From an uncultured bacterium (lineage in GTDB: Bacteria; Gemmatimonadota; Gemmatimonadetes; Gemmatimonadales; Gemmatimonadaceae), in assembly GCA_963978095.1 (NCBI GenBank), contig CAXBQP010000026.1, forward strand, positions 1 to 42,308: a DNA stretch of 42,308 bases, given 5' to 3'. Below are positions 21,110 to 40,674 of this stretch, piece after piece. The notes beneath the pieces are model-generated. The model made no database searches, was not told where the DNA came from, and saw nothing but the letters and a program-made list of their open reading frames with translations. How positions within the stretch are numbered: position 1 is the stretch's first letter; every line of letters starts with the position of its first letter. The position numbers and the translations under genes are program-made.

Positions 21110-21742
21110 CTACCGCACGCCAAGCCCTGCCTTGGCATTCACATTGTCGGGCGACACGGCCAGTACCCCGTCGAAGATCGCCTTGGCCTCCGCACTCTTG
21201 CCGAGCTTGAGCAACGCCCAGCCCAGTCCGGTGCGGTAGTCCATCTCCGAGGGATAATCCTCGGTCAGTCGGCGATATGTGGCTTCGGCACCACTGAAGT
21301 TTCCGGCGCTGTATTGCGCCAGCCCCAGTCGGGCGAGCGCCGTCGCATTGCGCCCATCCACGGCGAGCACTGCGCTGCACGCGCGTTCGAGCTCACGCCA
21401 GTTGCGCTGGGCCAGCAGGGGCAGTGTCAGTCCGAGCTTGGCCTCGATCGCCTTGGGATCCGTGGCGACGGCTTCCGAATAGCTGGCGATCGACGCCTTG
21501 AAATCACCCTGCAGATATTCGAGCCACCCGATCCGGATCGCCGAGAAGTAGGCGTTGCCTCCGGCCGCACGCGCATCGCGCGCCTTGGTCAGCGCACCGG
21601 TGTAGTCCCGCTTGGCTTCGAGGACGTACGACTCGCGGTAGAGTCCCGCCGCGCGCGCCTCCTGGGCACGGAGCATGCCACCGGGCATGATGACGGACAG
21701 GACGATCAGGACACGAACGGCACGGCGGATCACGGCATGCAT
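21110..21742 (-). CDS. Secreted tetratricopeptide-repeat protein
   Basis: Probable start ATG 21742, signal peptide ending LRA-Q, about 4-5 TPRs (RIGWLEYLQGDF, RLGLAQYSAGNF, GLGWALLKLGK). Confidence 0.8.
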   Translation of the reverse strand: MHAVIRRAVRVLIVLSVIMPGGMLRAQEARAAGLYRESYVLEAKRDYTGALTKARDARAAGGNAYFSAIRIGWLEYLQGDFKASIASYSEAVATDPKAIEAKLGLTLPLLAQRNWRELERACSAVLAVDGRNATALARLGLAQYSAGNFSGAEATYRRLTEDYPSEMDYRTGLGWALLKLGKSAEAKAIFDGVLAVSPDNVNAKAGLGVR

Positions 21743-21779
21743 CGGCGGGAACTCCGGAGGAAGATGAACGAGATGGGGG

Positions 21780-23000
21780 TCAGCGTGGTGCGATCCGGAC
21801 GCCGAGTCCGATGCTCTGGAAGGAGCCGTTGGCGGCGGTCTGTTCGAGTTGCAGCTGACCGTACGCGGTGATGGCGCGCGTGGCTTGCCAGCTCGCGGTG
21901 CCGGTGACCCCCCCCGTGGTCCGGTCGAGGAAGGACAGGATCGTCGGCCCGGCGGCACTGAAGGCCCACTGCTCCTTGCCGAAATGACCGGCGAGATCCA
22001 CCGTCAACCGGTCGTTGCGCAGTGTCACCGACGCCATCGGGCTCACGGCCGAGAAGGCCGAATCCGAGGTGATACGCATGCCCCCGCTGATGGAAACATT
22101 CGGCGACAGCCAGGCGAACACGGACGGCGCCACCTGCAGGTTGTTCGCACCCGTGCGCGCGATCATCGACACGGTCGCGGCGACGCCGATCGAGCCACCG
22201 ATGCGCGTGCTGAGCGCGGCGCCCGAGTTCGAGCGTCCGGCGCCGCTGAACGCGAAGCCGATCAACTCGGTCGTGGAGATGCCGATGTCGCGCGCGATGG
22301 CGCCGTACACTTCGCTTTGGGCGTCAAAGGCGCCGGTCTTGCCGACGAAGGTCGGGGAGGTCACGGTCCGGACCGCGACGCGGACCGCCGACGCATGGTC
22401 GAGTCGGATCGGCAGCTGCGCATAGTAGACCTGCGCCTTGGACGACGCGCTCGTCGCGCTGATGAACGCGGCCCATGCCTCGACACTCACGCCAGGCGGC
22501 CCTCCGAGGAGTGAGATCCCCTTGAGCGCGTCCTCGTTGGAGGCGTCGAACGACAGCGCTTCGGTCCACGCCGTCCGCGCCTCGCCAAGGGCGCCCCGAT
22601 CGAGCAGGTTGTATCCCAATGTCGTGAGCGCGAGCCCCAGCCCCGTCGTGGCCTCGAGGAGACTGCCCGGCAGCGTGCGGGCGCGCCGGTACAGCTGCAC
22701 CGCATCGGCCCCATGGCCCTGCCGCAAGGTGAGCCACGCCATGCGCACCGCCACATCGTACGTCGCCGGCGCCGCGCCGAAGGCCTCGATGAGTATCTGT
22801 TTGGCCGCCGTGAAGTCACCGCGCGCCTCCAGGGCGAGCGACTGATCCCATGCCGTACCGGTGGCGGCTTGCGGCAGTCGCACCGGAGGTCCGTCCTGCG
22901 CCGCCAGACGCGGGACGCCACCGGCGAGCAGCAGGGTCGTCAGGGCGCAGCGCGTGAGCACACGAGCGGTGCGAGCGGTGCGAGCGGAGTGCGGCATCAT
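21780..23000 (-). CDS. Exported protein with N-terminal TPRs and a putative C-terminal beta-barrel
   Basis: Start ATG 23000 overlaps the upstream TGA (ATGA); signal peptide; TPR helices, then amphipathic beta-strand pattern ending SIGLGVRIAPR. Confidence 0.7.
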   Translation of the reverse strand: MMPHSARTARTARVLTRCALTTLLLAGGVPRLAAQDGPPVRLPQAATGTAWDQSLALEARGDFTAAKQILIEAFGAAPATYDVAVRMAWLTLRQGHGADAVQLYRRARTLPGSLLEATTGLGLALTTLGYNLLDRGALGEARTAWTEALSFDASNEDALKGISLLGGPPGVSVEAWAAFISATSASSKAQVYYAQLPIRLDHASAVRVAVRTVTSPTFVGKTGAFDAQSEVYGAIARDIGISTTELIGFAFSGAGRSNSGAALSTRIGGSIGVAATVSMIARTGANNLQVAPSVFAWLSPNVSISGGMRITSDSAFSAVSPMASVTLRNDRLTVDLAGHFGKEQWAFSAAGPTILSFLDRTTGGVTGTASWQATRAITAYGQLQLEQTAANGSFQSIGLGVRIAPR

Positions 23001-25096
23001 GAGACCTCGGCCTGTGGATCGTTGTCCTGCGGGGCAATCAGTACCACCCGCTCCGTGGAACCACGGGTGACACTCACACGGTGTGCGTGTCCGGACAGGG
23101 ACACCAGTGCGGACGTGCGGAAGGATGCGCTCCGCCCCGCAATGGCCAGTGCCCCCTCGCTGCGCCGCGACGCGTACTGCACGTCCCAGTCGTTGAGACC
23201 CGGCGCGACCACGGTGAGCAAGTCGAGGAACGCCCACGGCCACGCGAAGAGCAGTCGACGCGGGACACGGTCGGTCCACTCGATCGTCCCCTCCTGGTCG
23301 AACGGGACCCGCGCCATGGCCAACAGCAGGTAGCGCAACAGCGAGTCCTGCGCCCCGTCGAAGGCGACGATCACGAGCGCATTCTCGTACGATTCCAGAT
23401 ACAACGCACCGCGCGCCGAGCGCAACGCGCGGCGACCCCACAGATCGACGTCGACGCGGGCGGGTTCCTGCCGGTCCGTCGCGGGATCGGTGAGCAGCCA
23501 TCGCGAGCCCGGTGGGAACGCGAGCGCACCCGCCAGCGCTTCGTCACGCATGATCGGCCGCACGCGGGCCCCGATCGCCGGGATCACGCGATGCGAGATG
23601 GTGACGGTCCGATCGGTGCGGCTCACGACGTCCCCGAAATCCGCCGCGAGCGTCTCGCTGCCGAGCGTCGGACCGCGCTGGACGTGGAAATGCAGATGCG
23701 GCACCAGCGAGCGCCCGCTGTTGCCACAGCGTCCCAACTCGGCGCCGGCGCGAATCGGATCGCCGACTTTGACGTTGATGCTCCCCGGCTTGAGATGCGA
23801 ATACACCGAGTACAGGTCGGAACCGTGCGCGATCACCACGGTGTTCCCCCAGTTCTCCCGCGCATTCATGCCGCCGATGGGATTGTCCGGCACCCCATCA
23901 CGGACGGATTCGACCGTTCCGGTTCCTGCGGCGAGCACGGGCAGATTGTAGCACCGGAAGTCGCGGGGTTCGCGCCCCTCGCCTTCCCAGGCGCGGCCAT
24001 CACTGCCGAGAATCTCGAAGTCGAACGCATGGCGCCACGGTCCCTGATGCGTGTGGGCACCGTCGTGCCCCTGTGTCACGGTCCAGGTGCCCCGGAACGG
24101 GAGCCGGAAGGGGAGCCACGCGAACTCGCCGAATCGCCGGACCCGCATCAGGTGACGCTCGAGGGCGTCCTCGGGGCTCGTGGCCGTGCGCAGCGCGGTG
24201 CTGGGATTCCGGTCGCGCTCCCGCATGCGCAACGCCGTGACCACCAGCAGCGACGTCACCGCGAACGGGAGCGAGAGCAATGGCAATGAGAGCACACCAC
24301 TGAGCGGCATCAAGGCGTACGTCACCACACTCGCGAGTGCACCACCGAGCACGGCGAGGAGGATCGAGGCGGGATGCGGGACGAAGTAGACCCCCCCCAC
24401 CGCCATCGCGGTGAGCATCGCATTGAACGCCGCGGTGAGATCCGTGGGGCCGAGATCGACCCCACTCCGCAAACCGGCATGCGCGAGCGCTGCACCGAGG
24501 ATCCCGGCGACCGCCAACAACAGCGCGATCCGGCTGTGCCACGCGATCGCCGCCACCACCAGCAGGCCGGCGATCGTTCCGTGCAGGTACAGCACGGCGG
24601 CGGGAATGTCGAGCCAGCTCGTGTCGAACCATGCGACCGGGATGGCCGCGAGATGGTCCGGTGTCGCGCCGTCGGCATGCGGGGTGAGGCGGGCGGTGAG
24701 TTGCACGACCCACGTGGCGGCCACGAAGGGCAGCGACAGCGCGGGCAGTGCCTGCCGGGCGAGCAGGTGGGTCAGCGCAGCCCCGAACAGCACCGCCAGC
24801 GTCGCTCCGGCGATCACGAGGGCCCAGGAGCTCCCGTCGGGCCCGGTGATCGCGGCGAGTGCGGTCAGCACGGCGGCGCAGGCGTATGATCCGTCGCGCA
24901 CGGCCTCGCGGCCGAAGCCGAGGGCGAGCGTCACCCCGTGGGCCACGAGGACGGCGACCAACGCGGCAGCGGCGGCCCGTGGAAAGGTGCACAACGCGGC
25001 CAGCACGAATCCGCCCGTCACGAGATTCCGCGACAGCAGGACCTGCGCGAAGGGCCGCAACGCGCTGTCGAGGAGCGCCCGCACCGTCAGTCGCAT
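22997..25096 (-). CDS. Urea-transporter-family membrane domain fused to an M23 metallopeptidase and a C-terminal domain of unknown function
   Basis: Two UT-like repeats (FAQVLLSRNLVTG...LSLPFV; AAFNAMLTAMAVGG...LSLPFAVT), then H..AFDF, PVLAAGTGTV, GNTVVIAH, YSHL, GNSGRS..PHLHFH. Confidence 0.82.
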   Translation of the reverse strand: MRLTVRALLDSALRPFAQVLLSRNLVTGGFVLAALCTFPRAAAAALVAVLVAHGVTLALGFGREAVRDGSYACAAVLTALAAITGPDGSSWALVIAGATLAVLFGAALTHLLARQALPALSLPFVAATWVVQLTARLTPHADGATPDHLAAIPVAWFDTSWLDIPAAVLYLHGTIAGLLVVAAIAWHSRIALLLAVAGILGAALAHAGLRSGVDLGPTDLTAAFNAMLTAMAVGGVYFVPHPASILLAVLGGALASVVTYALMPLSGVLSLPLLSLPFAVTSLLVVTALRMRERDRNPSTALRTATSPEDALERHLMRVRRFGEFAWLPFRLPFRGTWTVTQGHDGAHTHQGPWRHAFDFEILGSDGRAWEGEGREPRDFRCYNLPVLAAGTGTVESVRDGVPDNPIGGMNARENWGNTVVIAHGSDLYSVYSHLKPGSINVKVGDPIRAGAELGRCGNSGRSLVPHLHFHVQRGPTLGSETLAADFGDVVSRTDRTVTISHRVIPAIGARVRPIMRDEALAGALAFPPGSRWLLTDPATDRQEPARVDVDLWGRRALRSARGALYLESYENALVIVAFDGAQDSLLRYLLLAMARVPFDQEGTIEWTDRVPRRLLFAWPWAFLDLLTVVAPGLNDWDVQYASRRSEGALAIAGRSASFRTSALVSLSGHAHRVSVTRGSTERVVLIAPQDNDPQAEVS

Positions 25097-25118
25097 CGCG
25101 CGCCGTGCCCCGCCGCCC

Positions 25119-26456
25119 TCAGAGCCACGACGGCATCTCCTCCTGCTGCACGAGCGTCTCCACCGTCTCGGCGCGGCGAATGACCGCGTGGTGGCCGTCG
25201 AGCCCGACCATCACGACGTTGGGACGCGCGGTGATGAACTGCATCCATTGGGTCACGTTGTAGGCGCCGATCCGCCCGACCACCACCCGGTCTCCCGCCT
25301 TCAACGGCGGAAAGAGGATCCGGTCGCGCACCACGTCGATGTTCATGCAGAGTGGGCCGACGAACACCGTCGGCTCCGCGGTGCCGTGGACATCCTGCGC
25401 CGGGAACACGTCGTGGCGATACCACCACGCGGTCGGCAGCAGGTTCACGCCCGCGTCGATGACCACCGCGCGACGACCATCGGTGAGCCGCTTGTTGCCC
25501 ACGACGCTCGCCACCAGGATCCCGGCGTCGTCGACGATCGCGCGCCCCGTCTCGAGGACGATCCGCGGCCACTCCGCACCGCCGTACGCTTCGTCGAGTC
25601 CGGCCGCGATCTTCTCGACGTACTGCGAGAAACTCGGAGTCGCCTGCTCGCCGGGGAGATACTGCGATTGCAACGTGTTCCGCGACGCGAAGCCGCCCCC
25701 CATGTCGATCGTGTCGATGGACACATGCGATTCGTCGCGCAGCCGCGCGGCGAGCATCGCGATGCCCTTGGCCGCCAACCGATACGCATCGGCCTCTTGA
25801 ACGAAAGTGCCGACGTGGATGTGCAACGTGGTGATCTCCAGCACGCCACGTCGCACGATGCGCCGAGCGGCCTCCAGCGCCGAGCCGTTCTCCAGATTGA
25901 AGCCGAAGCGGTCCCACGACTGAGTGGGCAACTCGGTCATGTTCACCCGGATCCCGACCGTCGGACGGATCCCCAAGCGCTCGGCGACCTTCTCCGCGAG
26001 CGCGACCTCGTCCAGATGGTCCATCTGCACATGGGCGCCCGTGGTGAACGCCATCTCCAACTCGGCCTCGGTCTTGGCGGGGCCGTTGAACAGGATCTGA
26101 TGGCCCGGCATGCCGAGCCGCAGCGCCATCTGCATCTCGAGACCGCTGACCACCTCCGCCCACGCCCCCTCTTGATGCAGCACGCGGCAGACGGCCCCGA
26201 GATAGTTCGTCTTGTAGCTCCAACCGATCGTGAAGCGCGGGATGCGCGTCGCCATCTGGTCGCGGAGCTCGCGCATCCGCTCCCGGAGCATCCGCTCCGA
26301 GAAGAGGATCAACGGCGAGCCGTAGGCGGCGACGAGGTCGGCGATCGGTACCCCTTCGAACTTGTCGTACACCCGGATGGTGGGGCGCGAACCGAACTTG
26401 CTGATGCTCCCCACCTGATGGCGGACGATCACGGGACGTTCGTAACGCGGCTTCAT
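25119..26456 (-). CDS. Fold-type III PLP decarboxylase (diaminopimelate-decarboxylase-like, substrate unknown)
   Basis: SYKTN (PLP Lys), EVVSGLE, NGPAK, HIHVGT, IDMGGGF, ETGRAIV, GPLCMNID, GAY. Start ATG 26456 overlaps the ATP-grasp TGA. Confidence 0.88.
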   Translation of the reverse strand: MKPRYERPVIVRHQVGSISKFGSRPTIRVYDKFEGVPIADLVAAYGSPLILFSERMLRERMRELRDQMATRIPRFTIGWSYKTNYLGAVCRVLHQEGAWAEVVSGLEMQMALRLGMPGHQILFNGPAKTEAELEMAFTTGAHVQMDHLDEVALAEKVAERLGIRPTVGIRVNMTELPTQSWDRFGFNLENGSALEAARRIVRRGVLEITTLHIHVGTFVQEADAYRLAAKGIAMLAARLRDESHVSIDTIDMGGGFASRNTLQSQYLPGEQATPSFSQYVEKIAAGLDEAYGGAEWPRIVLETGRAIVDDAGILVASVVGNKRLTDGRRAVVIDAGVNLLPTAWWYRHDVFPAQDVHGTAEPTVFVGPLCMNIDVVRDRILFPPLKAGDRVVVGRIGAYNVTQWMQFITARPNVVMVGLDGHHAVIRRAETVETLVQQEEMPSWL

Positions 26457-27538
26457 GCGGAGGGCGTGGCGAAGGGAAGGATGCCGAGCGCGGAGAGCTG
26501 GCCGAAGGTCGCCATGTCCGCGACCTGGTCGAGGGAGATCCGGACGAACATCTGTCCGGTCTTGTAGGCCGGCAGGGGGGCGGTCATGGGCGCGCCGAGC
26601 GCGAGTCGGGCGCACGCCGAGGGCAGGTTCTGGCCGGCGGCTGCGGTGAGATAGCACCAGGCGGGAAAGCGCGGGTTGATCTCGATCACGCGCAGCGCCT
26701 CTGCGGTCATCTCGCCCTTGGCCGCGATGATCTCCACTTCGAGCGGGCCGCGCCAGTTGAGCGCACGGATGAGGGCCGCGGCCAGTGTGAGCAGCGCCGG
26801 ACTCCCGACGGTGACCCCTGACCAGCCTTTGCCTTTGTCCGTGAGCGCGAGTTTGCGCATCGCGACCGCTCCGATCATCGCGCCCGTGCCGTCGCCCAAC
26901 GCGCACACGTTGTACTCGTCGCCGTCGACGTGCTCCTGGACGATGACGGGGAGTCCCCAGGTGGCTTCGTAGTAGCGGAACGAGGCGAGCGCATCGGCCT
27001 CGGTGTGACAGACGTATGCCCCGTAGTAGACCCCTTTCACCACGACGGGCAGCCCGAACTTCTTGATGAGCTTCCCGAGGCTGTCCGCGCTCATCAGCGG
27101 CTCCGAGTCCGGGATGTGCACGCCAGGCGCGGTGCCAAGCTTGGGGAGCTGCGGTTTGGAGCTGCGATCGATCGCGTCGACCGTCGGGAGAAAAGTGTGC
27201 ACGCCGAGGGCGAGCAGCTCGTCGCGGAGCAACGCGACCGCACGAATCTCGGAGTCCAGCGTCGGGATGAACACCGTGATGCCGAACTGTGCCACGAGCT
27301 CGCGCATGCGGTGCAGGAGCGCGTCACGACCGGCCGACGGGAGGGGAAGGATCGCGCCCCCGTCGAGCAGTCCGCTGGCGTAGAATCCCGGATCGAGTGG
27401 GTCGTAGCCCAGTCCGATGATGCGTCCGTGGAAGTTCGGGTCGAGTCGGAGCGCACGCGCGACCGGCACCCCGGGCGCGGGGTTGTCGGTGGCATTCATT
27501 CCCGTGACCGCGATGGTCGCGGCGAGCGGCGTGTTCAC
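26453..27538 (-). CDS. ATP-grasp carboxylate-amine ligase
   Basis: IPTLDSE, LPVVVKG, IVQEHVDGDEY, GPLEVE, IEINPRFP motifs; GTG start overlaps the PqqD TGA. Confidence 0.88.
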   Translation of the reverse strand: MNTPLAATIAVTGMNATDNPAPGVPVARALRLDPNFHGRIIGLGYDPLDPGFYASGLLDGGAILPLPSAGRDALLHRMRELVAQFGITVFIPTLDSEIRAVALLRDELLALGVHTFLPTVDAIDRSSKPQLPKLGTAPGVHIPDSEPLMSADSLGKLIKKFGLPVVVKGVYYGAYVCHTEADALASFRYYEATWGLPVIVQEHVDGDEYNVCALGDGTGAMIGAVAMRKLALTDKGKGWSGVTVGSPALLTLAAALIRALNWRGPLEVEIIAAKGEMTAEALRVIEINPRFPAWCYLTAAAGQNLPSACARLALGAPMTAPLPAYKTGQMFVRISLDQVADMATFGQLSALGILPFATPSA

Positions 27539-27786
27539 TTCACCAGCCCATGTTCGCGAAGTCGCCCGACCAGCTCGTAGACATCGCGCGCGATGTCGTC
27601 CTCCGGCTCGGTGTCGAATTGGTCGTGCAGGGCGGCGATGACGGCCTCGGGCGTTGCCCCTTCCTTCAAGGCGCGCAATGCCGCGAGCGCCGTGGCATTG
27701 ACGTTGTACGTGTGGCCCGTCAGCGGGTCGAAGACAAAGCCGGCGTCGGAAATCGCCAGTTCACGCAGACGTTCGGTGTTCGACAT
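27535..27786 (-). CDS. Stand-alone PqqD-family / RiPP recognition element (RRE) protein
   Basis: 83 aa: beta strands (LAISDAGFVFDPLTGHTYNVN), then helices (ATALAALRAL; PEAVIAALHDQF; IARDVYELVGRLREHGLV). Alternative start ATG 27825. Confidence 0.82.
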   Translation of the reverse strand: MSNTERLRELAISDAGFVFDPLTGHTYNVNATALAALRALKEGATPEAVIAALHDQFDTEPEDDIARDVYELVGRLREHGLVK

Positions 27787-27842
27787 TCGGATGCCCGGGG
27801 AGGTGGAGTCCAACAGCTCGTCCATTCCGCCTTCTACGGACA

Positions 27843-27851
27843 AATCTAGCA
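27843..27851 (-). promoter_or_regulatory. Putative extended -10 element (TGCTAGATT) for the PqqD operon
   Basis: TG-n-TAnnnT match in the intergenic region upstream of the PqqD gene. Confidence 0.35.
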
Positions 27852-27914
27852 CTCCCTGACATGCCTATCCGCGCGTTGGGCGGGCCAACCCGAGATTGGG
27901 CGAGCCGGTTCGCG

Positions 27915-28547
27915 CTAGGTCCGGGTCGGCGTCAGGCGTCGATCGACCGCGACGAGCAGGGCGCTCATCACGACGATCGCGACGGTGATCAGGCCGGACA
28001 CTTTCAGGACGACCGGATATCCGAGCGTGTTCACATCGAGGAAATAGTACGGATACCATCCCTCGGCGGCCCCCCGGGCCAGCGAGTAGGCCAGATACCC
28101 CGCCGGGTATCCCAACCAGCTGACGATGTGGCTCACACGAAGCGTCCCCTTGGGGGCGAAGCGCCACCAAAAGAGCAGCACGAGGAGCGGTACGATGTCG
28201 TGCACGAGTTCATCGGCCGCGATGGAGAGCCCTTTCGGATGCCAGGTGCTGCGGAGCAGCGCCGAGTAGGCGACGCCGACGAACGCGATGTGGACCGTCG
28301 TGGCAGCCAATACCCCCGGGCGGCTCGCCCAGGCGGTCAGCGCGCCTTGGCGCGCACGCGCCAGGACGGTGAAGAGCACCGCCACCACGAGGTTGGTCGT
28401 GATCGTGAAGTAGCCGACCAACAGCCAGAGCTCATGGAGTGCCGGGGTCCCACGTGCCTGGGCGCGCATCAGGGCGGTCACCACCTGCAGGACCAGCCCG
28501 GCCCAGCAGCAAGCCGCAACGAAGGCGGCAGCGGATCGACGAGTCAT
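27915..28547 (-). CDS. Pr6Pr / FAR-17a-AIG1-like membrane protein
   Basis: YFTITTN, LVHDIVP, WLGYP..Y..Y...RG...GWYPYYFLDV; probable start ATG 28547. Confidence 0.8.
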   Translation of the reverse strand: MTRRSAAAFVAACCWAGLVLQVVTALMRAQARGTPALHELWLLVGYFTITTNLVVAVLFTVLARARQGALTAWASRPGVLAATTVHIAFVGVAYSALLRSTWHPKGLSIAADELVHDIVPLLVLLFWWRFAPKGTLRVSHIVSWLGYPAGYLAYSLARGAAEGWYPYYFLDVNTLGYPVVLKVSGLITVAIVVMSALLVAVDRRLTPTRT

Positions 28548-28747
28548 GATGGCGGGAGCGTTAGTTGTACGGAAATAGGAACGGAGGCGACGACGTTCGG
28601 ACGGCACGCGAACGGTGCCCTGTGGGCCGCGTGACGGCACAGGGCGCCATCCAGCGCCGGGGGAGCCAAAAGATGCGTGACGGTGCCCCGCACCGCCAGC
28701 GTCCCCGTCCCGGCGCACGGCTGGAAACCTTTCGCGCCGGTCGTCCG

Positions 28748-28793
28748 TTGAGTGCAAGTATCCACTTGCTTACACTGCAAGTGATCACTTGCA
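28748..28793 (+). promoter_or_regulatory. Sigma70-like promoter with two overlapping palindromes (putative TetR operators)
   Basis: TTGAGT 28748-53, N17, TACACT 28771-76; GCAAGT-atcc-ACTTGC 28754-69 fills the spacer; perfect TGCAAGTGATCACTTGCA 28776-93 covers the expected +1. Confidence 0.75.
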
Positions 28794-28904
28794 TCGGGCC
28801 TTCTGCGGGATCGGCGCGCAACGCGTCGGTCCGATGACGCCCGTCGGGTGCATCCCCGGCTTCCACTCGCTGCTCACCACCACCGCGCGCAGGCGCGTTC
28901 GACC

Positions 28905-30923
28905 ATGTCCGTTCCCGTTCCGACCCGCACCCATGTCCTGGCCGCCGCCGCCCGCGTGTACGGCGCGCTGGGATTCCGCGGCGCGACCACCCGCAAGATC
29001 GCGGAGGCCGCCGGCGTCAATGAAGTCACGCTCTTCCGGCAGTTCGGCAGCAAGAACGCCCTGCTGCTGGAGGCGCTGCGGGTCTCGGGGGCGGTGCATC
29101 CCGACGCCGTGCTGCCGACGGCCCCGGTGGATCCCCTGGCCGAGTTGACCGCCTGGAGTTCGCACATGCGGAAGTCGCTGTTGGCCATGCGTGGCATGAT
29201 CCGCAAGGCGATGGCGGAGTTCGAGGTCAATCCGGCGATGCCGAAATGCATGACGCACGGGGCCGAACAATCCCTGATGCAGTTGCGGGAGTACCTCACG
29301 CGTCTCGTCGATCAGGGCATGGTGCGCGCCGATGCGGATGTCGTCAGCGCGGCCTCGATGCTGATGAGCGCCATCTTTCACGACGCGCTCGGTCGCGACA
29401 TCATGCCGCACGCCTTCCCGCAGCCCGTGTCGGCGGCGCCGGCCAGCTACGCGCGCCTCACACTCCGCTCGATGGGCTATGAGCCCACGGCGAGCCGGCC
29501 GTCGAACGACCGCAAGCGCACGATCCAGCGCGTGCGACGCGCGCTGACGGTCGTGCTGCTCGTCGCGACCACGCCATGGGCGGGCGTCGCGCAGGGTACC
29601 GCCACGGCCCTCTCCCTCGCGGAGGCGCTGACCATGGGGCAAAAGGCGAGCCACGCCGTGCGTAGCGCCGAGGCCGGCGTGATGCGGGCCGGGGCGCAGC
29701 AACAGCAGGCGCGTGCGCAGTACTTGCCGCAGGTCAACGGAACGTTCGGCTACCAACGCCTGATGCAATCGCAGTTCTCGGCCATCACGTCCGGGAGCGG
29801 TTCCGGGTCCGGGTCGGGATCTGGGTCCGGTTCCGGGTCGGGCGGCGGCACCAGCAGCTTCGGCGACATCACCAAGATCTTCGCGTCGCCCAACACGGCG
29901 ACGCTCGGACTTTCGCTGACGCAGAATCTCTTCACCGCCGGCAAGTTGGAGTCCGCGACCAAGGGGGCGGCCGCCGCCCGAACGGCCGCCGACATCGGTC
30001 TCGACGCCGCGCGCGCGCAAGTCAATCTCGATGTCGCCCAGGCGTATTTCGACGCCGTCGCCGCCAAGGCGCTGGTCGACATCGCCGACAGCACCCTGGC
30101 CCAGGCCGAACGGACGCTGTCGCAGACCACGGTCAGCAAGCAGGTCGGGAGCGCGGCCGAGTTCGATCTGTTGCGGGCGCGGGTGGCGCGTGACAACCAG
30201 CGTCCGGCCCTGATCCAGGCGCGCGGCAACTACGACCTCACGATGATGCGTCTGCGTCAGTTGCTCGGGATCCCGCTCGACAGACAACTCGCGCTCACCA
30301 CGCCGATCCGGGACGAAGGCGTCGCGGCGGAGGCGCCCGGAGCGGATACCGCGGTGGCGCATCGCGCCACCGTGCGCCAAGCGGCCGCCAACGTGACCGC
30401 GCAGCAGTTCGCCCTGTCGGCGGCCGAGCGGAACCGCCTGCCCGCGGTGCAGGTTTCGAGTGCGTATCAGCGCTTTGCGTATCCCGCGGGCATCCTGCCG
30501 CTCGCGCTCAACCAGTACTACCCGAACTGGACCATCTCCCTCGGATTGTCGGTTCCGGTGTTCACCGGTGGCAAGCTCGATGCGGATCGCGCCATCGCCC
30601 AGGCCAACCTGATCGACGCGCAGCAATCCCTGGAGCAGTCCCGTGAACTCGCGGCGCTCGATGCGCGGACGGCGATCCTGCAGCTCGAGCAGGCGCAGGC
30701 CGCGTACGCGAGCAGCGTGGGGACGGACGAGCAGGCGCGCCGCGCGTACGGGATTGCCGAGGTGCGCTTCAACGAAGGGATCTCCACGCAGGTGGAACTG
30801 TTGCAGAGCCGCACGCAGTACGAACAGGCGCGGCTGACCCGCGTGCTCGCGGCGCGTGATCTGGAGGTCACCCGCTTGCGCGTGGCCTTCCTGAAGGACC
30901 TGCCGGTGACGGTGCGGCGCTAA
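28905..30923 (+). CDS. TetR-family regulator fused in frame to a TolC-family outer-membrane efflux protein
   Basis: HTH GFRGATTRKIAEAAGVNEVTLFRQFGSKNALL; no stop before an internal signal peptide (RRALTVVLLVATTPWAGVA-Q); then OEP repeats (AQYLPQV, VAQAYF, RNRLPAV, FNEGIST.VELL). Alternative start GTG 28848. Confidence 0.85.
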   Translation: MSVPVPTRTHVLAAAARVYGALGFRGATTRKIAEAAGVNEVTLFRQFGSKNALLLEALRVSGAVHPDAVLPTAPVDPLAELTAWSSHMRKSLLAMRGMIRKAMAEFEVNPAMPKCMTHGAEQSLMQLREYLTRLVDQGMVRADADVVSAASMLMSAIFHDALGRDIMPHAFPQPVSAAPASYARLTLRSMGYEPTASRPSNDRKRTIQRVRRALTVVLLVATTPWAGVAQGTATALSLAEALTMGQKASHAVRSAEAGVMRAGAQQQQARAQYLPQVNGTFGYQRLMQSQFSAITSGSGSGSGSGSGSGSGSGGGTSSFGDITKIFASPNTATLGLSLTQNLFTAGKLESATKGAAAARTAADIGLDAARAQVNLDVAQAYFDAVAAKALVDIADSTLAQAERTLSQTTVSKQVGSAAEFDLLRARVARDNQRPALIQARGNYDLTMMRLRQLLGIPLDRQLALTTPIRDEGVAAEAPGADTAVAHRATVRQAAANVTAQQFALSAAERNRLPAVQVSSAYQRFAYPAGILPLALNQYYPNWTISLGLSVPVFTGGKLDADRAIAQANLIDAQQSLEQSRELAALDARTAILQLEQAQAAYASSVGTDEQARRAYGIAEVRFNEGISTQVELLQSRTQYEQARLTRVLAARDLEVTRLRVAFLKDLPVTVRR

Positions 30924-36681: not shown

Positions 36682-38130
36682 CTAACCCGCCCGCGCGGCC
36701 GCCTGCAACAGGTCCCACGCCCGCCGGATATGCCGCTCCTCGGTCCCCAAATTCCCCAGGGCGACCCGGATGACGTAGGTAGGACCTAACATCGTGTGGG
36801 ATATGAAGATATCCCCGCTTTCGTTGACCCGGTCGAGGATGCGCGCGTTCCGGGCGTTGGTCGCCTCGACCCCCTCGCCGGGACGCACATGTCGGAAGCA
36901 TATCGTGCTGAACGGGTGGGGGGCGGCGACCTCCCATTCCGGGGCCTCCCGGACCCACCCGGCGAACTGCGACGCCAGCGCGCAGTGATGCCGGATCCGT
37001 GTCGCGATCCCCTCGGCCCCGAACGCGCGCAGCACCATCCACAACTTCAACGACCGGAATCGACGGCCGAGCTGGTAGCCGTAGTCCATGTAGTTGACCA
37101 CCACGTCCTGCTCCGCCGTCTCCAGGTATGCCGCCATCAAACTGAAGGCACGCTTCAGCACCGCCGGCTTCCGCACGAAAAACACCGAACAATCCATCGG
37201 GGTGAAGAGCCATTTGTGCGGGTTCACCACGAACGAGTCCGCGCGGTCGACGCCGTCGAGCAGGTGGCGCAGTTCGGGAACGGCGCCCGCGACGCCGCCG
37301 TACGCCCCGTCCACGTGCAACCAGAGCTGCTCCCGCTGCGCGATGTCGGCGATGGCCGGCACGGGGTCGACGCTGGTCATGCTCGTGGTGCCCACGGTCG
37401 CGACGACCGCGATCGGCTTGAAGCCCTCGGCGCGATCGGCGGCGATCGCGGCCTCGAGCAGTTCCGGACGCATGCGGAACTCCGCATCGGCCTTCACGCG
37501 CACGACGTTCTCGGCGCCGATCCCAAGAGTCATGGCGGCCTTGTCGATGCTGTTGTGCGCCCACTCGGAGCAGTACACGCGCATGCGGGGGATGTCGCGC
37601 CCCGCGAGTCCGAGCCGACGCACCTCGAGCGACGCGTCCGCCTCGCGCGCCGCCGCGAGCGCGTAGAGCGTGCTCGTGCTCGCGAGGTCGTTGACCATGC
37701 CGAACCAACCCGGGGTCAGACCGAGGAGCTGTCGCAACCAATCGGTGACGACCTGTTCGAGTTCGGTGGCAGCCGGGCTCGTGCGCCAGAGCATCCCGTT
37801 CACGTTCAGCGCCGCCATCAGGAACTCGGCCAGGATGCCGGGCGCCGTGGCGCTGTTGGCGAAGTACGCCATGAAACCGGGGTGGTTCCAGTGGGTGAGT
37901 CCCGGCAGGATGGTCCGCTCGAAGTCGGCGAGGATGGTGTCGAGCGATTCGCCCTGTTGCGGTGGAGCGGGAGCGAGAACGTCGCGGGTGGCGCCGGGCA
38001 CCAGCGGCGGCAGCACCGGATAGCGGGCGGGATCCTCGAGGTACCGCGCGATCCAGTCAGCGAGCTTGTGTGCGTGGGCGCGGAACTCTTCGAGCGGGAT
38101 GTCGTGGGTCTCGGCGGACGGCAGTATCAT
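36682..38130 (-). CDS. Group II PLP-dependent (aromatic-L-amino-acid-like) decarboxylase
   Basis: THWNHPGFMAYF, SPAATELE, HNSIDKA, VGTTS, HVDGAYGG, NPHKW, GRRFRSLKLW. Confidence 0.92.
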   Translation of the reverse strand: MILPSAETHDIPLEEFRAHAHKLADWIARYLEDPARYPVLPPLVPGATRDVLAPAPPQQGESLDTILADFERTILPGLTHWNHPGFMAYFANSATAPGILAEFLMAALNVNGMLWRTSPAATELEQVVTDWLRQLLGLTPGWFGMVNDLASTSTLYALAAAREADASLEVRRLGLAGRDIPRMRVYCSEWAHNSIDKAAMTLGIGAENVVRVKADAEFRMRPELLEAAIAADRAEGFKPIAVVATVGTTSMTSVDPVPAIADIAQREQLWLHVDGAYGGVAGAVPELRHLLDGVDRADSFVVNPHKWLFTPMDCSVFFVRKPAVLKRAFSLMAAYLETAEQDVVVNYMDYGYQLGRRFRSLKLWMVLRAFGAEGIATRIRHHCALASQFAGWVREAPEWEVAAPHPFSTICFRHVRPGEGVEATNARNARILDRVNESGDIFISHTMLGPTYVIRVALGNLGTEERHIRRAWDLLQAAARAG

Positions 38131-38211
38131 GGGGAGAAGAATAACGAAACTTCAGCGCCGTCAGGCGCGTATAGAGAGGACGCACTCACCACCCCGAGTC
38201 CCCCTCCACGG

Positions 38212-40674
38212 ATGATTGCCCTGCTTCCGGTCCTGTTCGCATTCCAAGCCACGGTTGGGGTGCGCGTGCGCGCCAACTGCGACTCCGCCTGTCAGGCCCG
38301 TGCCACCGCGCGTGAAGGCGCCCGGGTCCTGCGCGAGGAGACTGGGGGGACGCGTCCGACGCGTGAACCACGACGCGTGCCGGTCACGCCCGCCTTGCTG
38401 GCGTCCGCGTACCATGATGCCGCCGCGAAGTCGCTCGTGCTGCGGGCACGGGCCACGCGACTCGCGCAGGACTCCTTGCTCGCCAGCTATGACGCGACCA
38501 CGTATCAGCGCATCAGTGTGGGGATGGGGATGAAGGCGGTGGCGCGTGACCGTCTCGCGTTGCGCCACGAGGATGCGTCGCGCGTCCGGTGGGAGCGCGG
38601 CAAGGGTGCCGTGGTCGAGCTCAAGGGGGATCGCACCGCGGTGCCGCTGGTGGGTGGGGCCAGCAACGTGACGGGAAATGTCAGCGGGATGTCGCCCGTC
38701 CCCTATTACCCCGGGCGCGAACAGCTCTGGATCGGGGGCGGGTTGGTGCAGTCCGACGTCGACGAACGGGAGTTCGTGCATCCGATCGCGAGCGGCGCGG
38801 AGGCGTACTACACGTACGCCAGCGGCGACTCGGTGGTGATGGGGCTGCCCGACGGCAAGAGTCTCGTCCTGCGGGAGCTCAAGATCGCGGCGCGAAGCCC
38901 CAAGTGGAATCTGAGTGTCGGGTCCTTCTGGTTCGACGAGGAATCGGCGCATCTGGTCCGTGCGGTGTATCGCATCAGCGAGCAGCTGGACGTGTGGGCG
39001 TTCTCGGACGAGGAGACGCAACGGCGGAAAGCGGATTCAGTCGCGCGGGTGCAGGCCGGGGATACGACGGCGCCCGGTGGCCGTGGTGGTCGCGGTGGTC
39101 GCGGCGGGCCTCCGAACGCAGGCGTCTCCTTCCTGGCGAAGGCGATCCTCTCGCCGCTGAAAGTCGACGTGAGTGCGATCACGATGGAATACGGGCTCTA
39201 CGACCAGAAGTTCTGGCTCCCGCGTTCACAGGCGTTCGAGGGCAACGCACAGGCGGGATTCATCCGGATCCCGGTGACGATGGAGCAGAAGTTCAAATAC
39301 GAATCGGTGAACGCCCTCGAGGCGCCACTGCCGATTCTGGCGAGTGGTCCGACGCGGCTGGTGCAGTATCGGGACTCCCTGGTAGCGGCCAAGACCCCGG
39401 CCGCACTCCGCGATTCCCTGATGCGGCTGGCGCGCGCGGCGCGGGTGCAGGAACTCGCTGCGCTCAAGGCCAAGGAATGTGCCACGAGCGACACCTACAC
39501 GCGGCAGGTGCGGCGCTATCAGGGGACGCTCGACGTGACCCAGAAGATCCCCTGCGACAGTACGAAGCTCGCGAACTCGCCGGAGCTGCCCGCGTCCATC
39601 TACGATCCGGGCGAGGACATGTTCGGATCCTCTGATCGCGATGCCTTGGTGAAGGCGTTGGGTCTTGGTTTGCAGTCCGGCTGGGGGCCGCAGAAAATCC
39701 AGCTCGCGTATGGACTCGCGCAAACGCGCTACAATCGCGTCGAAGGATTGGGCACCGGCGTCGTCGCCTCCAGCGTGCTGGGGCAAGGCTACACGGCGTC
39801 GCTCGGGGTTCGGAGCGCCTTCGCGGATCGCCAGCTCAACGCCGAGTTCGGCGTGGCGCGCAGCAACGGGCGCTCGACTATCCGGGGAAACATCTACCGT
39901 CGGCTCGATGCGATGAACGACTGGGGTACCCCGCTCGACTTCGGTGCCTCATTGGGCGGGTTGCTCTACGCCCGCGACGAAGGCGCCTATTATCGCAGCT
40001 GGGGCGCCGAGGTGAAGGGGACCACGCCGCGGTGGGGGCAGCTCGACTGGCGCGTGTTCGGCGAACAGCAGTGGGGCGCCGAGGTGAACTCGCGCTGGAC
40101 GCTGTTCGGGGGCGGCAATGATGTGCGGTTCATCGCGAATCCGACGGCCGCGCGCGTGACGTCGTATGGCGCCTCGGTACGGCTGCACAACTCGATGGGC
40201 CTTGATCCCAAGGATTGGCGATTGCTGAGCGACATCCGGTTGGAGGGTGCGACCGGTGATCAGCGGTATGGCCGCGGGCTCATCGACCTCACCGTCTCGA
40301 AAAGCGTCGGGCGACTCGCGGGCGCGATCACGACGAGTGGGGGGTGGACCATCGGTGACGTCCCGGTGCAGCGGCGCTTCTACCTCGGCGGGTCGCAGAC
40401 CATCCGGGGGCAGAGTGCGCTGACGGCGGCGGGGGATGCGTTCTGGATGACGCGCGCCGAACTCGGGACGAGCACCGCGCTCGCGCGCCCGATCGTCTTC
40501 ATCGATGCCGGCTGGACCGGAGATCGTCGTGCGTGGCATGCACAGGGACGCGCACTCAGTGGCATGGGGGTCGGGGCGAGTTTCCTGGATGGATTGGTGC
40601 GTGTCGACCTGGCCCGCGGGATGTATCCCGCCACGCAGACGCGTCTGGATTTCTACTTGGAGGCGCGCTTCTAG
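38212..40674 (+). CDS. Outer-membrane beta-barrel protein (BamA/TamA-like C-terminus) with a large N-terminal domain
   Basis: True start probably ATG 38212 (the ORF-track start overlaps the decarboxylase); RYNRVEG, FYLGGSQTIRG, F.DAGW, C-terminal DFYLEARF. Confidence 0.75.
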   Translation: MIALLPVLFAFQATVGVRVRANCDSACQARATAREGARVLREETGGTRPTREPRRVPVTPALLASAYHDAAAKSLVLRARATRLAQDSLLASYDATTYQRISVGMGMKAVARDRLALRHEDASRVRWERGKGAVVELKGDRTAVPLVGGASNVTGNVSGMSPVPYYPGREQLWIGGGLVQSDVDEREFVHPIASGAEAYYTYASGDSVVMGLPDGKSLVLRELKIAARSPKWNLSVGSFWFDEESAHLVRAVYRISEQLDVWAFSDEETQRRKADSVARVQAGDTTAPGGRGGRGGRGGPPNAGVSFLAKAILSPLKVDVSAITMEYGLYDQKFWLPRSQAFEGNAQAGFIRIPVTMEQKFKYESVNALEAPLPILASGPTRLVQYRDSLVAAKTPAALRDSLMRLARAARVQELAALKAKECATSDTYTRQVRRYQGTLDVTQKIPCDSTKLANSPELPASIYDPGEDMFGSSDRDALVKALGLGLQSGWGPQKIQLAYGLAQTRYNRVEGLGTGVVASSVLGQGYTASLGVRSAFADRQLNAEFGVARSNGRSTIRGNIYRRLDAMNDWGTPLDFGASLGGLLYARDEGAYYRSWGAEVKGTTPRWGQLDWRVFGEQQWGAEVNSRWTLFGGGNDVRFIANPTAARVTSYGASVRLHNSMGLDPKDWRLLSDIRLEGATGDQRYGRGLIDLTVSKSVGRLAGAITTSGGWTIGDVPVQRRFYLGGSQTIRGQSALTAAGDAFWMTRAELGTSTALARPIVFIDAGWTGDRRAWHAQGRALSGMGVGASFLDGLVRVDLARGMYPATQTRLDFYLEARF

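Follow-up and report, generated by a model that had tools for sequence, protein, structure and literature searches.

Here we describe a tightly packed operon of six co-directional genes at 21110-27852 on the minus strand of a 42,308-nt stretch of DNA from an uncultured bacterium of the Gemmatimonadaceae (contig CAXBQP010000026.1 of assembly GCA_963978095.1). The window, as we call the stretch that was analysed, is the entire 42.3-kb contig, and the genome comprises 2.98 Mb in 101 contigs. In order of transcription, the genes encode a PqqD-type protein of the recognition element (RRE) kind found with ribosomally synthesised peptides that are modified after translation (RiPPs), an ATP-grasp ligase, a pyridoxal phosphate (PLP)-dependent decarboxylase of the alanine-racemase fold, a urea-transporter (UT) domain fused to an M23 peptidase (UT-M23), a tetratricopeptide repeat (TPR) protein ending in a beta-barrel (TPR-barrel), and a second, periplasmic TPR protein. 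The operon is real and conserved and, as far as the literature searched goes, undescribed. Its decarboxylase carries an N-terminal tail resembling a lasso-peptide leader, which the PqqD protein is predicted to bind. We propose, tentatively and at somewhat less than even confidence, that the operon specifies a so far undescribed pathway of ligation followed by decarboxylation, in which an RRE adaptor brings the enzymes together at a membrane protein of the urea-channel fold and dedicated proteins handle the product at the outer membrane.

The six open reading frames (ORFs) were recovered as the original prediction had claimed, and the junctions it reported were read directly in the sequence: start-stop overlaps of GTGA at 27535-27538 and of ATGA at 26453-26456 and 22997-23000, a 22-nt gap between the decarboxylase and UT-M23 genes, and a 37-nt gap between the TPR-barrel and TPR genes. 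Its domain calls for all six genes were likewise upheld by Pfam, with every match above its cut-off, by NCBIfam and, for the barrel, by AlphaFold2 (AF2) and Foldseek. The "-10-like element" that it had placed upstream was not recovered, a consensus scan giving no promoter-like site upstream on the minus strand. Terminator-like sites were no more frequent than in shuffled sequence, an Rfam gathering search of the window and six loci found no RNA element or riboswitch in or before the cassette, and PADLOC returned no defence-system match.

Scanning for UT-M23 in one genome per species matched 333 stretches, 245 of which encode a relative, and the best 80 were kept; these came from Gemmatimonadota, Myxococcota, Bacteroidota, Verrucomicrobia, Nitrospiraceae, WOR-3 and others. 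Genes for PqqD, ATP-grasp and decarboxylase preceded UT-M23 in that order and on the same strand in 60 of the 61 loci with at least 3 kb of upstream sequence. A same-strand TPR gene came after it in 57 of the 58 loci that extend at least 2.6 kb downstream. The recurrence of this order places the arrangement far beyond chance. At the sole upstream exception (L011), an orthologue of the decarboxylase (47% identity) lies on another contig of the same genome, and the operon is therefore split there. The same core context was found in 80 further metagenome loci, searched with a divergent decarboxylase (P0129). The genes thus travel together across phyla; co-occurrence in other genomes, on which the original prediction had staked the cassette, was found. 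These results indicated that the six genes are one functional unit, with a four-gene core (PqqD, ligase, decarboxylase and UT-M23) and two envelope proteins.

The distribution of the cassette is patchy, and full-length UT-M23 occurred in 26 of 301 sampled Bacteroidota, the seed genome included. One sampled Bacteroidota genome (G217:C1:2246027-2248188) has a split or broken copy, in which the UT and M23 parts match separately, side by side, and the first piece contains a TGA. At ten Bacteroidota loci (e.g. L035:4303-5103 (+)), an additional gene, placed between the PqqD and ATP-grasp genes or just upstream of PqqD, encodes a product of 266 aa that carries a type IX secretion C-terminal sorting domain.

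The decarboxylase (25119-26456 (-), 445 aa) begins with a tail of 22 residues (26391-26456 (-)) that holds the motif Y5-E-R-P8-V-I10 (26427-26444), followed by N/S-K20-F-G, with the consensus xKxRYERPxI-x9-NKFG. This tail is conserved without insertions or deletions in all 65 aligned orthologues from all phyla sampled, each of which has K20, and E6, P8 and K20 are invariant in 45/45 orthologues; FigC and diaminopimelate decarboxylase (DAPDC) do not align to the extension. A regular expression for the tail gave 66 matches in the 80 loci, all of them decarboxylase N-termini, and a single match over the whole 2.98-Mb genome. According to two reports (PMC13381572, PMC12710340), discrete lasso RREs recognise [Y/W]xxPx[L/V/I/F/A], and YERPVI fits the pattern as given there. 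The alignments strongly support the view that the decarboxylase N-terminus carries a lasso-leader-like YxxPxI motif.

The PqqD protein (27535-27852 (-), 105 aa counted from GTG) matched Pfam PqqD at 44.6 bits against a cut-off of 23.4, and its closest solved relative is the lasso RRE TfuB1 (6jx3). Orthologues of other phyla begin a few residues before the LRELAIS segment, so translation probably starts within the ORF, at the ATG at 27825 or 27786, and yields about 83-96 aa. We predicted the complex of PqqD with the full-length decarboxylase, each with its own alignment, together with three controls. The pair scored 0.64 (runs 0.78, 0.60 and 0.64) against 0.00 for the best control; the mark for such scores is reached by 116 of 157 solved complexes and by 2 of 215 mismatched pairs, a calibration outside which the alignments used here lie. 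The runs shared at least 52% of contacts, with a partner pLDDT of at least 69. Decarboxylase residues 1-13 make up one side of the confident interface; on the PqqD side are the third strand (residues 47-55) and residues 75-101, with Y5 next to residues 75 and 79-81. In the predicted mode, the tail is added to the PqqD sheet as a further beta-strand with its tyrosine in a helix 3 pocket, and decarboxylase residues 14-30 stay outside any confident interface. The models support binding of the decarboxylase tail by PqqD, although they do not show it.

The body of the decarboxylase matched Pfam Orn_Arg_deC_N (112.6 bits) and Orn_DAP_Arg_deC (46.1 bits). Its closest solved relative is FigC/FslC, an N-citrylornithine decarboxylase (7kh2, 197 bits, versus 120 for the best DAPDC), and profile comparison gave 301 bits for FigC versus 212 for DAPDC; the FslC model NF041039 was matched at 206.5 bits against a cut-off of 500. 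BtrK was detectable as a relative at 77 bits, or 139 by profile. In the orthologue alignment, K82 and C370-M371 are invariant, the latter corresponding to C354-M355 of FigC, and no acidic residue follows the catalytic cysteine. The Cys-Met pair in the substrate loop sets FigC apart from DAPDC and ornithine decarboxylase, and FigC has been grouped with SbnH, AcsE, MccE and BtrK, whose substrates are amino acids linked through the side chain to a larger group (PMC7857480). Identity with LysA, which the original prediction had allowed for in case the enzyme were the only lysA of the genome, was ruled out: the decarboxylase scored 203 bits against the TIGR01048 cut-off of 297.9, and a true lysA with 431 bits lies on another contig (G000:C12:2953-4170). 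Sequence comparison strongly supports placing the enzyme with the conjugate-acting decarboxylases (FigC, SbnH, MccE and BtrK) and not with lysA. Its substrate is probably not a citryl conjugate, because Ile373 replaces the His357 or Lys347 that meets the citryl carboxylates. A library representative of 781 aa (P0157) joins the decarboxylase PLP domain (29-276) and a UT domain (471-638) in one chain, which may be a real decarboxylase::channel fusion or a read-through gene call.

The ligase (26453-27538 (-), 361 aa) matched Pfam ATPgrasp_Ter (33.5 bits) and ATP-grasp_3. ATP-grasp signature residues are present, and K168, E286, N288 and R290 are invariant in 41/41 sequences. Profile matches were to carbamoyl-phosphate synthetase (5e-18) and to the stand-alone protein 2pn1 (6e-14), and all the solved relatives, which also include biotin carboxylases, PurD and Ddl, are generic. 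The family spans at least 1,489 clusters, whose source names are generic.

From these assignments we propose a mechanism in which the PqqD protein would act as an assembly adaptor, holding the decarboxylase and probably also the ligase in one complex, rather than as a chaperone of a free precursor peptide; the PqqD and ligase genes overlap. The ATP-grasp enzyme would form an amide that leaves the alpha-amino-acid end free, and the decarboxylase would then convert this end into a primary amine. A zinc-dependent M23 domain on the cytoplasmic face of the UT-fold pore would cut an amide bond, trimming or releasing the product, and a small neutral amide or amine compound would leave through the pore to be handed on by the TPR protein and the barrel.

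An unlikely alternative to docking is that the tail serves as a covalent carrier, with Lys20 bearing a ligated dicarboxylic amino acid that is decarboxylated in the enzyme's own active site and freed at the channel when M23 cuts the isopeptide, much as in the BtrI/J/K cycle with the carrier fused to the decarboxylase. The invariance of K20 among the orthologues and the fixed, indel-free spacing from Y5 to K20 would suit such a role, as would the precedents of BtrK, which takes carrier-bound glutamate, and MccE, which takes a peptide-bound group (PMC7857480). In the 80 metagenome loci, found with the lysine-less variant P0129 and encoding relatives only about 50% identical to it, lysine at +15 was read in 77; in the other three the regular expression fell on upstream non-coding text. 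The wider family argues the other way. An exhaustive profile search covered 1.84 billion representatives of 50%-identity clusters; among the best 150 matches, which were examined, 28 have a [Y/W]xxPx motif 40-48 residues ahead of the GSP anchor, and only 16 of these 28 have lysine at +15, the other 12 having T, P, R, S or H. One representative, P0136, is a natural ATP-grasp::tail::decarboxylase fusion; its ATP-grasp part is 39% identical to the window's ligase (E 2e-76) and of the cassette type, and P0136 therefore belongs to this system, yet it has arginine at the position of the tail lysine. The tail lysine thus appears not to be kept across the wider family, and N-x-F-G is kept better, which suggests a structural role for this segment. 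With the absence of residues 14-30 from the confident interface also counting against it, covalent tethering appears weakened, and because the lysine varies, including to arginine in P0136, we rank docking of the tail on an adaptor above it. On sequence grounds, the P0136 fusion also provides what we read as independent evidence of the ligase and decarboxylase working together.

The original prediction had PqqD delivering a separate peptide to the enzymes, a role that fits poorly with what was found, since no precursor gene came to light and the predicted ligand is the decarboxylase tail. It would belong to a conventional RiPP pathway in which PqqD brings an unlinked, ribosomally made precursor to the ATP-grasp enzyme, the leader is removed by M23, and the motif on the decarboxylase tail is incidental or competitive. 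In favour of this arrangement, PqqD scores as a peptide chaperone on NCBIfam (43.7 bits on both NF033530 lasso_PqqD and TIGR04353, the latter with a cut-off of 35), graspetide cross-links are a known product of ATP-grasp enzymes, and an RRE with a protease and an ATP-dependent amide former parallels lasso B1, B2 and C. However, when ORFs of 30 aa or longer from the 80 loci and the window were clustered all against all, only shadows of the core genes proved conserved, and among ORFs of 15-90 aa that precede PqqD in six Bacteroidales loci there was no conserved small gene. A short-protein search for a stand-alone tail peptide with residues 1-40, by a method that needs shared 5-residue words and is limited in sensitivity to that extent, returned one 164-aa fragment, and the leader-like motif was confined to the decarboxylase in the loci and the genome. 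In addition, the substrate of an alanine-racemase-fold decarboxylase must have its alpha-amine and alpha-carboxylate both free and on the same carbon, a feature missing from ordinary peptides. We therefore regard a conventional RiPP pathway as quite unlikely.

The HprK-related kinase A that is the defining neighbour of TIGR04353 PqqD_rel_X (the HPr-rel-A system) has no match in the window, and the only HprK-related match in the genome (26.6 bits against a cut-off of 200) is on contig C23. A second, higher-scoring PqqD gene (63.6 bits) lies about 4 kb from this weak match (G000:C23:14709-14909 (-) and C23:10457-10630 (-)), and the region may be a separate RRE-dependent cluster.

The UT-M23 fusion (whole ORF 22997-25096 (-)) matched Pfam UT at 137.1 bits and Peptidase_M23 at 58.1 bits, and its AF2 model reached a pLDDT of 88.7 and a pTM of 0.83. 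The channel domain comprises residues 1-290 (24227-25096 (-)), and residues 1-320 aligned by VIA on UT-B and dvUT with a Z of 36 and an rmsd of 2.4 Å over about 300 residues. Both UT halves keep the pore signature LPxL(S)xPF, where dvUT has LPALTAPF and MPALTWPF; the UT part scored 94.7 bits against the TIGR03441 equivalog, whose cut-off is 274.6. The M23 domain (about residues 325-490; 23627-24124 (-)) aligned by VIA on Csd1/2, LytM and EnpA at Z 13-15. H350, D359, H434, H467 and H469 are invariant in 50/50 sequences, so that the metal and catalytic residues are retained; H356 varies (33 H, 14 K), and the first metal motif is therefore H-x8-D and not the canonical HxxxD.

The C-terminal beta-rich domain (about residues 491-699; 22997-23626 (-)) was modelled mostly at pLDDT >85. 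Foldseek found no match for its fold, VIA gave only half-barrels at Z 7-8, and Atlas feature scores of 0.77 and 0.75 were uninformative. Residues 616-634 (about 23195-23251 (-)) have a mean hydropathy of 1.5 and lower model confidence, and may lie against the membrane.

UT proteins have both termini inside. In UT-M23, four lysines or arginines fall in residues 1-24 and four in 291-307, after the last membrane helix, with none in the central loop, and no membrane-like hydrophobic segment was found beyond residue 295. From this charge pattern, the lack of a later hydrophobic segment and the topology of UT proteins, we infer that the M23 and beta-rich domains face the cytoplasm. Action of M23 on muropeptides in the periplasm, as had been suggested earlier, is accordingly unlikely, given this charge distribution. 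We know of no studied example of a urea-transporter fold joined to a cytoplasmic M23 peptidase.

The TPR-barrel protein (21780-23000 (-), 406 aa) is secreted and was modelled by AF2 at a pLDDT of 79.5, with helices at 48-165 and about 15 strands at 173-403; the barrel has no Pfam match. Foldseek matches included BcsC (9b8a, 2e-10), OmpG and PelBC, with BcsC and PelBC at the top among those spanning both parts, and the protein scored 16-29 bits against the PgaA model, whose cut-off is 366. BLAST suggested a lineage-specific gene, whereas profile comparison did not: the Gemmatimonadota protein matched a Myxococcota TPR-plus-beta protein encoded upstream of PqqD (hhalign 97.8%, E 8e-13), and the latter matched the product of Bacteroidota gene 5 (97.1%, E 4.7e-11). 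Direct comparison of the Gemmatimonadota and Bacteroidota barrel profiles was not significant (5.7%), and homology over the three phyla is drawn because the Myxococcota intermediates link both ends. The periplasmic TPR protein (21110-21742 (-), 210 aa) matched TPR_16 at 50.5 bits and other TPR families, and a hydrophobic, signal-peptide-like N-terminus was read directly in its sequence. A dedicated TPR-barrel is typical of polymer export. The original prediction's division into cytoplasmic synthesis, an inner-membrane channel/peptidase and periplasmic and outer-membrane handling keeps its compartment layout in our account and loses PqqD as the deliverer of a separate peptide.

The envelope proteins could instead work inwards, the barrel, TPR protein and UT pore importing a small urea- or amide-like compound or a short conjugate that M23 cleaves in the cytoplasm and whose pieces the ligase and decarboxylase convert for salvage or detoxification. 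UT proteins are bidirectional channels and the pore signature is kept here; OmpG-type uptake porins matched the barrel with TM-scores of 0.6-0.7, normalised to the target; and the ligase has carbamoyl-phosphate synthetase, biotin carboxylases and urea amidolyase among its nearest solved relatives. Those ATP-grasp matches are, however, generic for the superfamily, and no urease, allophanate hydrolase or binding protein is encoded in the operon. Moreover, all characterised relatives that ligate with ATP and then decarboxylate do so in biosynthesis (PMC7857480), and uptake and conversion seem to us quite improbable. Weaker still, and very unlikely, is remodelling or recycling of peptidoglycan stem peptides, with the ligase acting like Ddl, the decarboxylase like DAPDC and M23 as an endopeptidase. 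Each of the three enzyme families does have members linked to peptidoglycan, the ligase has weak Ddl matches, and the NCBIfam matches of the M23 part include the peptidoglycan peptidases Pgp3 and MepM, but the peptidoglycan-peptidase models were all matched far below their cut-offs, the M23 domain probably faces the cytoplasm, the decarboxylase is nearer FigC than DAPDC and has no acidic residue after its catalytic cysteine, and no Mur or Mpl genes are linked.

Several points weigh against the adaptor-assembled pathway that we favour. The narrow urea-type pore fits badly with a TPR-barrel of the polymer-export type, and the barrel model resembles uptake porins such as OmpG as well, so that flux could run either way. 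The cytoplasmic position of M23 rests on charge distribution and general UT topology. The complex score is the model's own confidence, to which the calibration applies only roughly with these alignments, and passing the mark may reflect likeness rather than binding, because RRE-leader complexes are among those solved. No PqqD fusion was found among the longer proteins searched, which is weak evidence. Among 201 sampled genomes of the window's phylum, only the window's own has full-length UT-M23; nine further matches are confined to the M23 part, and neither of the other two genomes sampled from the same genus has UT-M23. With the cassette so rare in its phylum, its role cannot be a core function.

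The mismatch between pore and barrel could be reconciled by an extension of the proposed pathway, which we regard as a long shot, in which repeated cycles of ligase and decarboxylase produce a thin, uncharged, linear oligo- or polyamide of the oligo-GABA (gamma-aminobutyric acid) or oligo-beta-alanine type for export. BtrJ and BtrK act twice in butirosin synthesis. Each round would add a dicarboxylic amino acid through its side-chain carboxylate to the terminal amine and then remove the alpha-carboxylate. The chain would thread the UT-fold pore, whose amide-binding ladder suits a string of amides, with M23 as the cutter and the BcsC-like TPR-barrel as the exporter.

The claim of the original prediction that no characterised pathway has this composition is borne out by the literature and NCBIfam, where none was found. 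The literature searched, which holds few subscription journals, contains no description of the cassette, and PqqD_rel_X is the only curated NCBIfam model that identifies one of the six proteins at family level. The cassette departs from each family compared in a defining feature, and its scores lie under every equivalog cut-off. It resembles the butirosin pathway (BtrI/BtrJ/BtrK, Bacillus circulans) in pairing an ATP-grasp enzyme with an alanine-racemase-fold decarboxylase, acting in BtrK on a carrier-attached amino acid, and in encoding a small accessory protein alongside the pair. Unlike that pathway, it has no acyl-carrier protein or PP-binding domain in the operon or its flanks and no thioester chemistry, the small protein beside the enzymes is instead an RRE whose predicted ligand is the decarboxylase tail, its decarboxylase is nearer FigC than BtrK, and it adds a membrane channel/peptidase and outer-membrane parts. 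The proposed order of ligating a side chain and then decarboxylating is shared with FigA/FigC (FslA/FslC) in rhizoferrin synthesis and with the SbnH and AcsE steps of NRPS-independent siderophore (NIS) pathways, and the substrate-loop Cys-Met pair is shared with FigC (PMC7857480). In contrast to FigA/FigC, the scanned genes of the window include no NIS synthetase of the IucA/IucC type, the ligase being an ATP-grasp enzyme, and Ile373 stands at +3 after the cysteine in place of the FigC-type contact with the citryl carboxylates.

Likeness to lasso B1 RREs (TfuB1/FusB1) extends to the best family and structure matches of PqqD, the YERPVI motif and the predicted beta-strand addition, and lasso pathways likewise combine an RRE with a peptidase, an enzyme that forms amides at the expense of ATP, and an exporter. 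The "leader" here, however, is the N-terminus of a 445-aa enzyme and not a short precursor; neither an Asn-synthetase-like cyclase nor a B2 transglutaminase-like cysteine protease is found among the six proteins; the peptidase is instead a channel-fused M23; and the decarboxylase has no lasso counterpart. With urea transporters (dvUT, UT-B/SLC14), UT-M23 shares the fold, both GFN segments and both LPxLxxPF pore signatures, whereas it has serine for the signature threonine in both halves, falls below the equivalog cut-off, and carries about 400 extra residues (M23 and beta domain), probably on the cytoplasmic side. As in BcsC, PgaA, PelB/PelC and AlgK/AlgE, a TPR array is fused to a barrel with a second TPR protein alongside; unlike those export porins, the TPR-barrel is much smaller (406 aa, about 15 strands), its PgaA score is far below the cut-off, and no glycosyltransferase synthase is encoded in the operon.

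The flanking genes are unrelated to the cassette. Upstream and co-directional is a gene for a Pr6Pr membrane protein (27915-28757 (-); NF038065, 119.6 bits against a cut-off of 30), 62 nt from the PqqD ORF; compared by size and place, similar ORFs occupy this position in two Gemmatimonadota loci (L002 and L003) and not in other phyla. Beyond it lies a divergent TetR/OEP/HlyD/AcrB set, in which a single 691-aa frame at 28848-30923 (+) combines TetR_N (31-76) with outer-membrane efflux repeats (257-474), stop-free between them, which reflects an unusual fusion, the loss of a stop or an ORF that has been called too long; the HlyD and AcrB genes come after it. Further along, a group II PLP decarboxylase at 36682-38130 (-) (Pyridoxal_deC, 312 bits) overlaps an opposite-strand ORF of 1292 aa (36796-40674 (+)), whose sole domain matches, to ShlB/Omp85, lie at the C-terminus and whose N-terminal part is probably spurious. 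Downstream of the cassette are genes for a GH20 hexosaminidase and a rhomboid protein.

New in this work are the identification of the decarboxylase tail as lasso-leader-like, a complex prediction with controls for the window's own proteins, a natural ligase::decarboxylase fusion, and the finding that the tail lysine varies in the wider family. If the proposed reading is correct, an RRE would read a leader motif on a full-size enzyme and not on a precursor peptide, which would widen the targets of RRE-based genome mining; ligation followed by decarboxylation would feed straight into a dedicated path across both membranes; and a UT fold joined to a cytoplasmic M23 peptidase would be a new architecture. 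Were the oligoamide extension true, the cassette would secrete a polymer that is neither ribosomal nor a sugar, through a system put together by an RRE adaptor that reads a leader motif on an enzyme. The metabolite made by the cassette would belong to hundreds of bacteria of freshwater and sediment, mostly uncultured and spread over several phyla.

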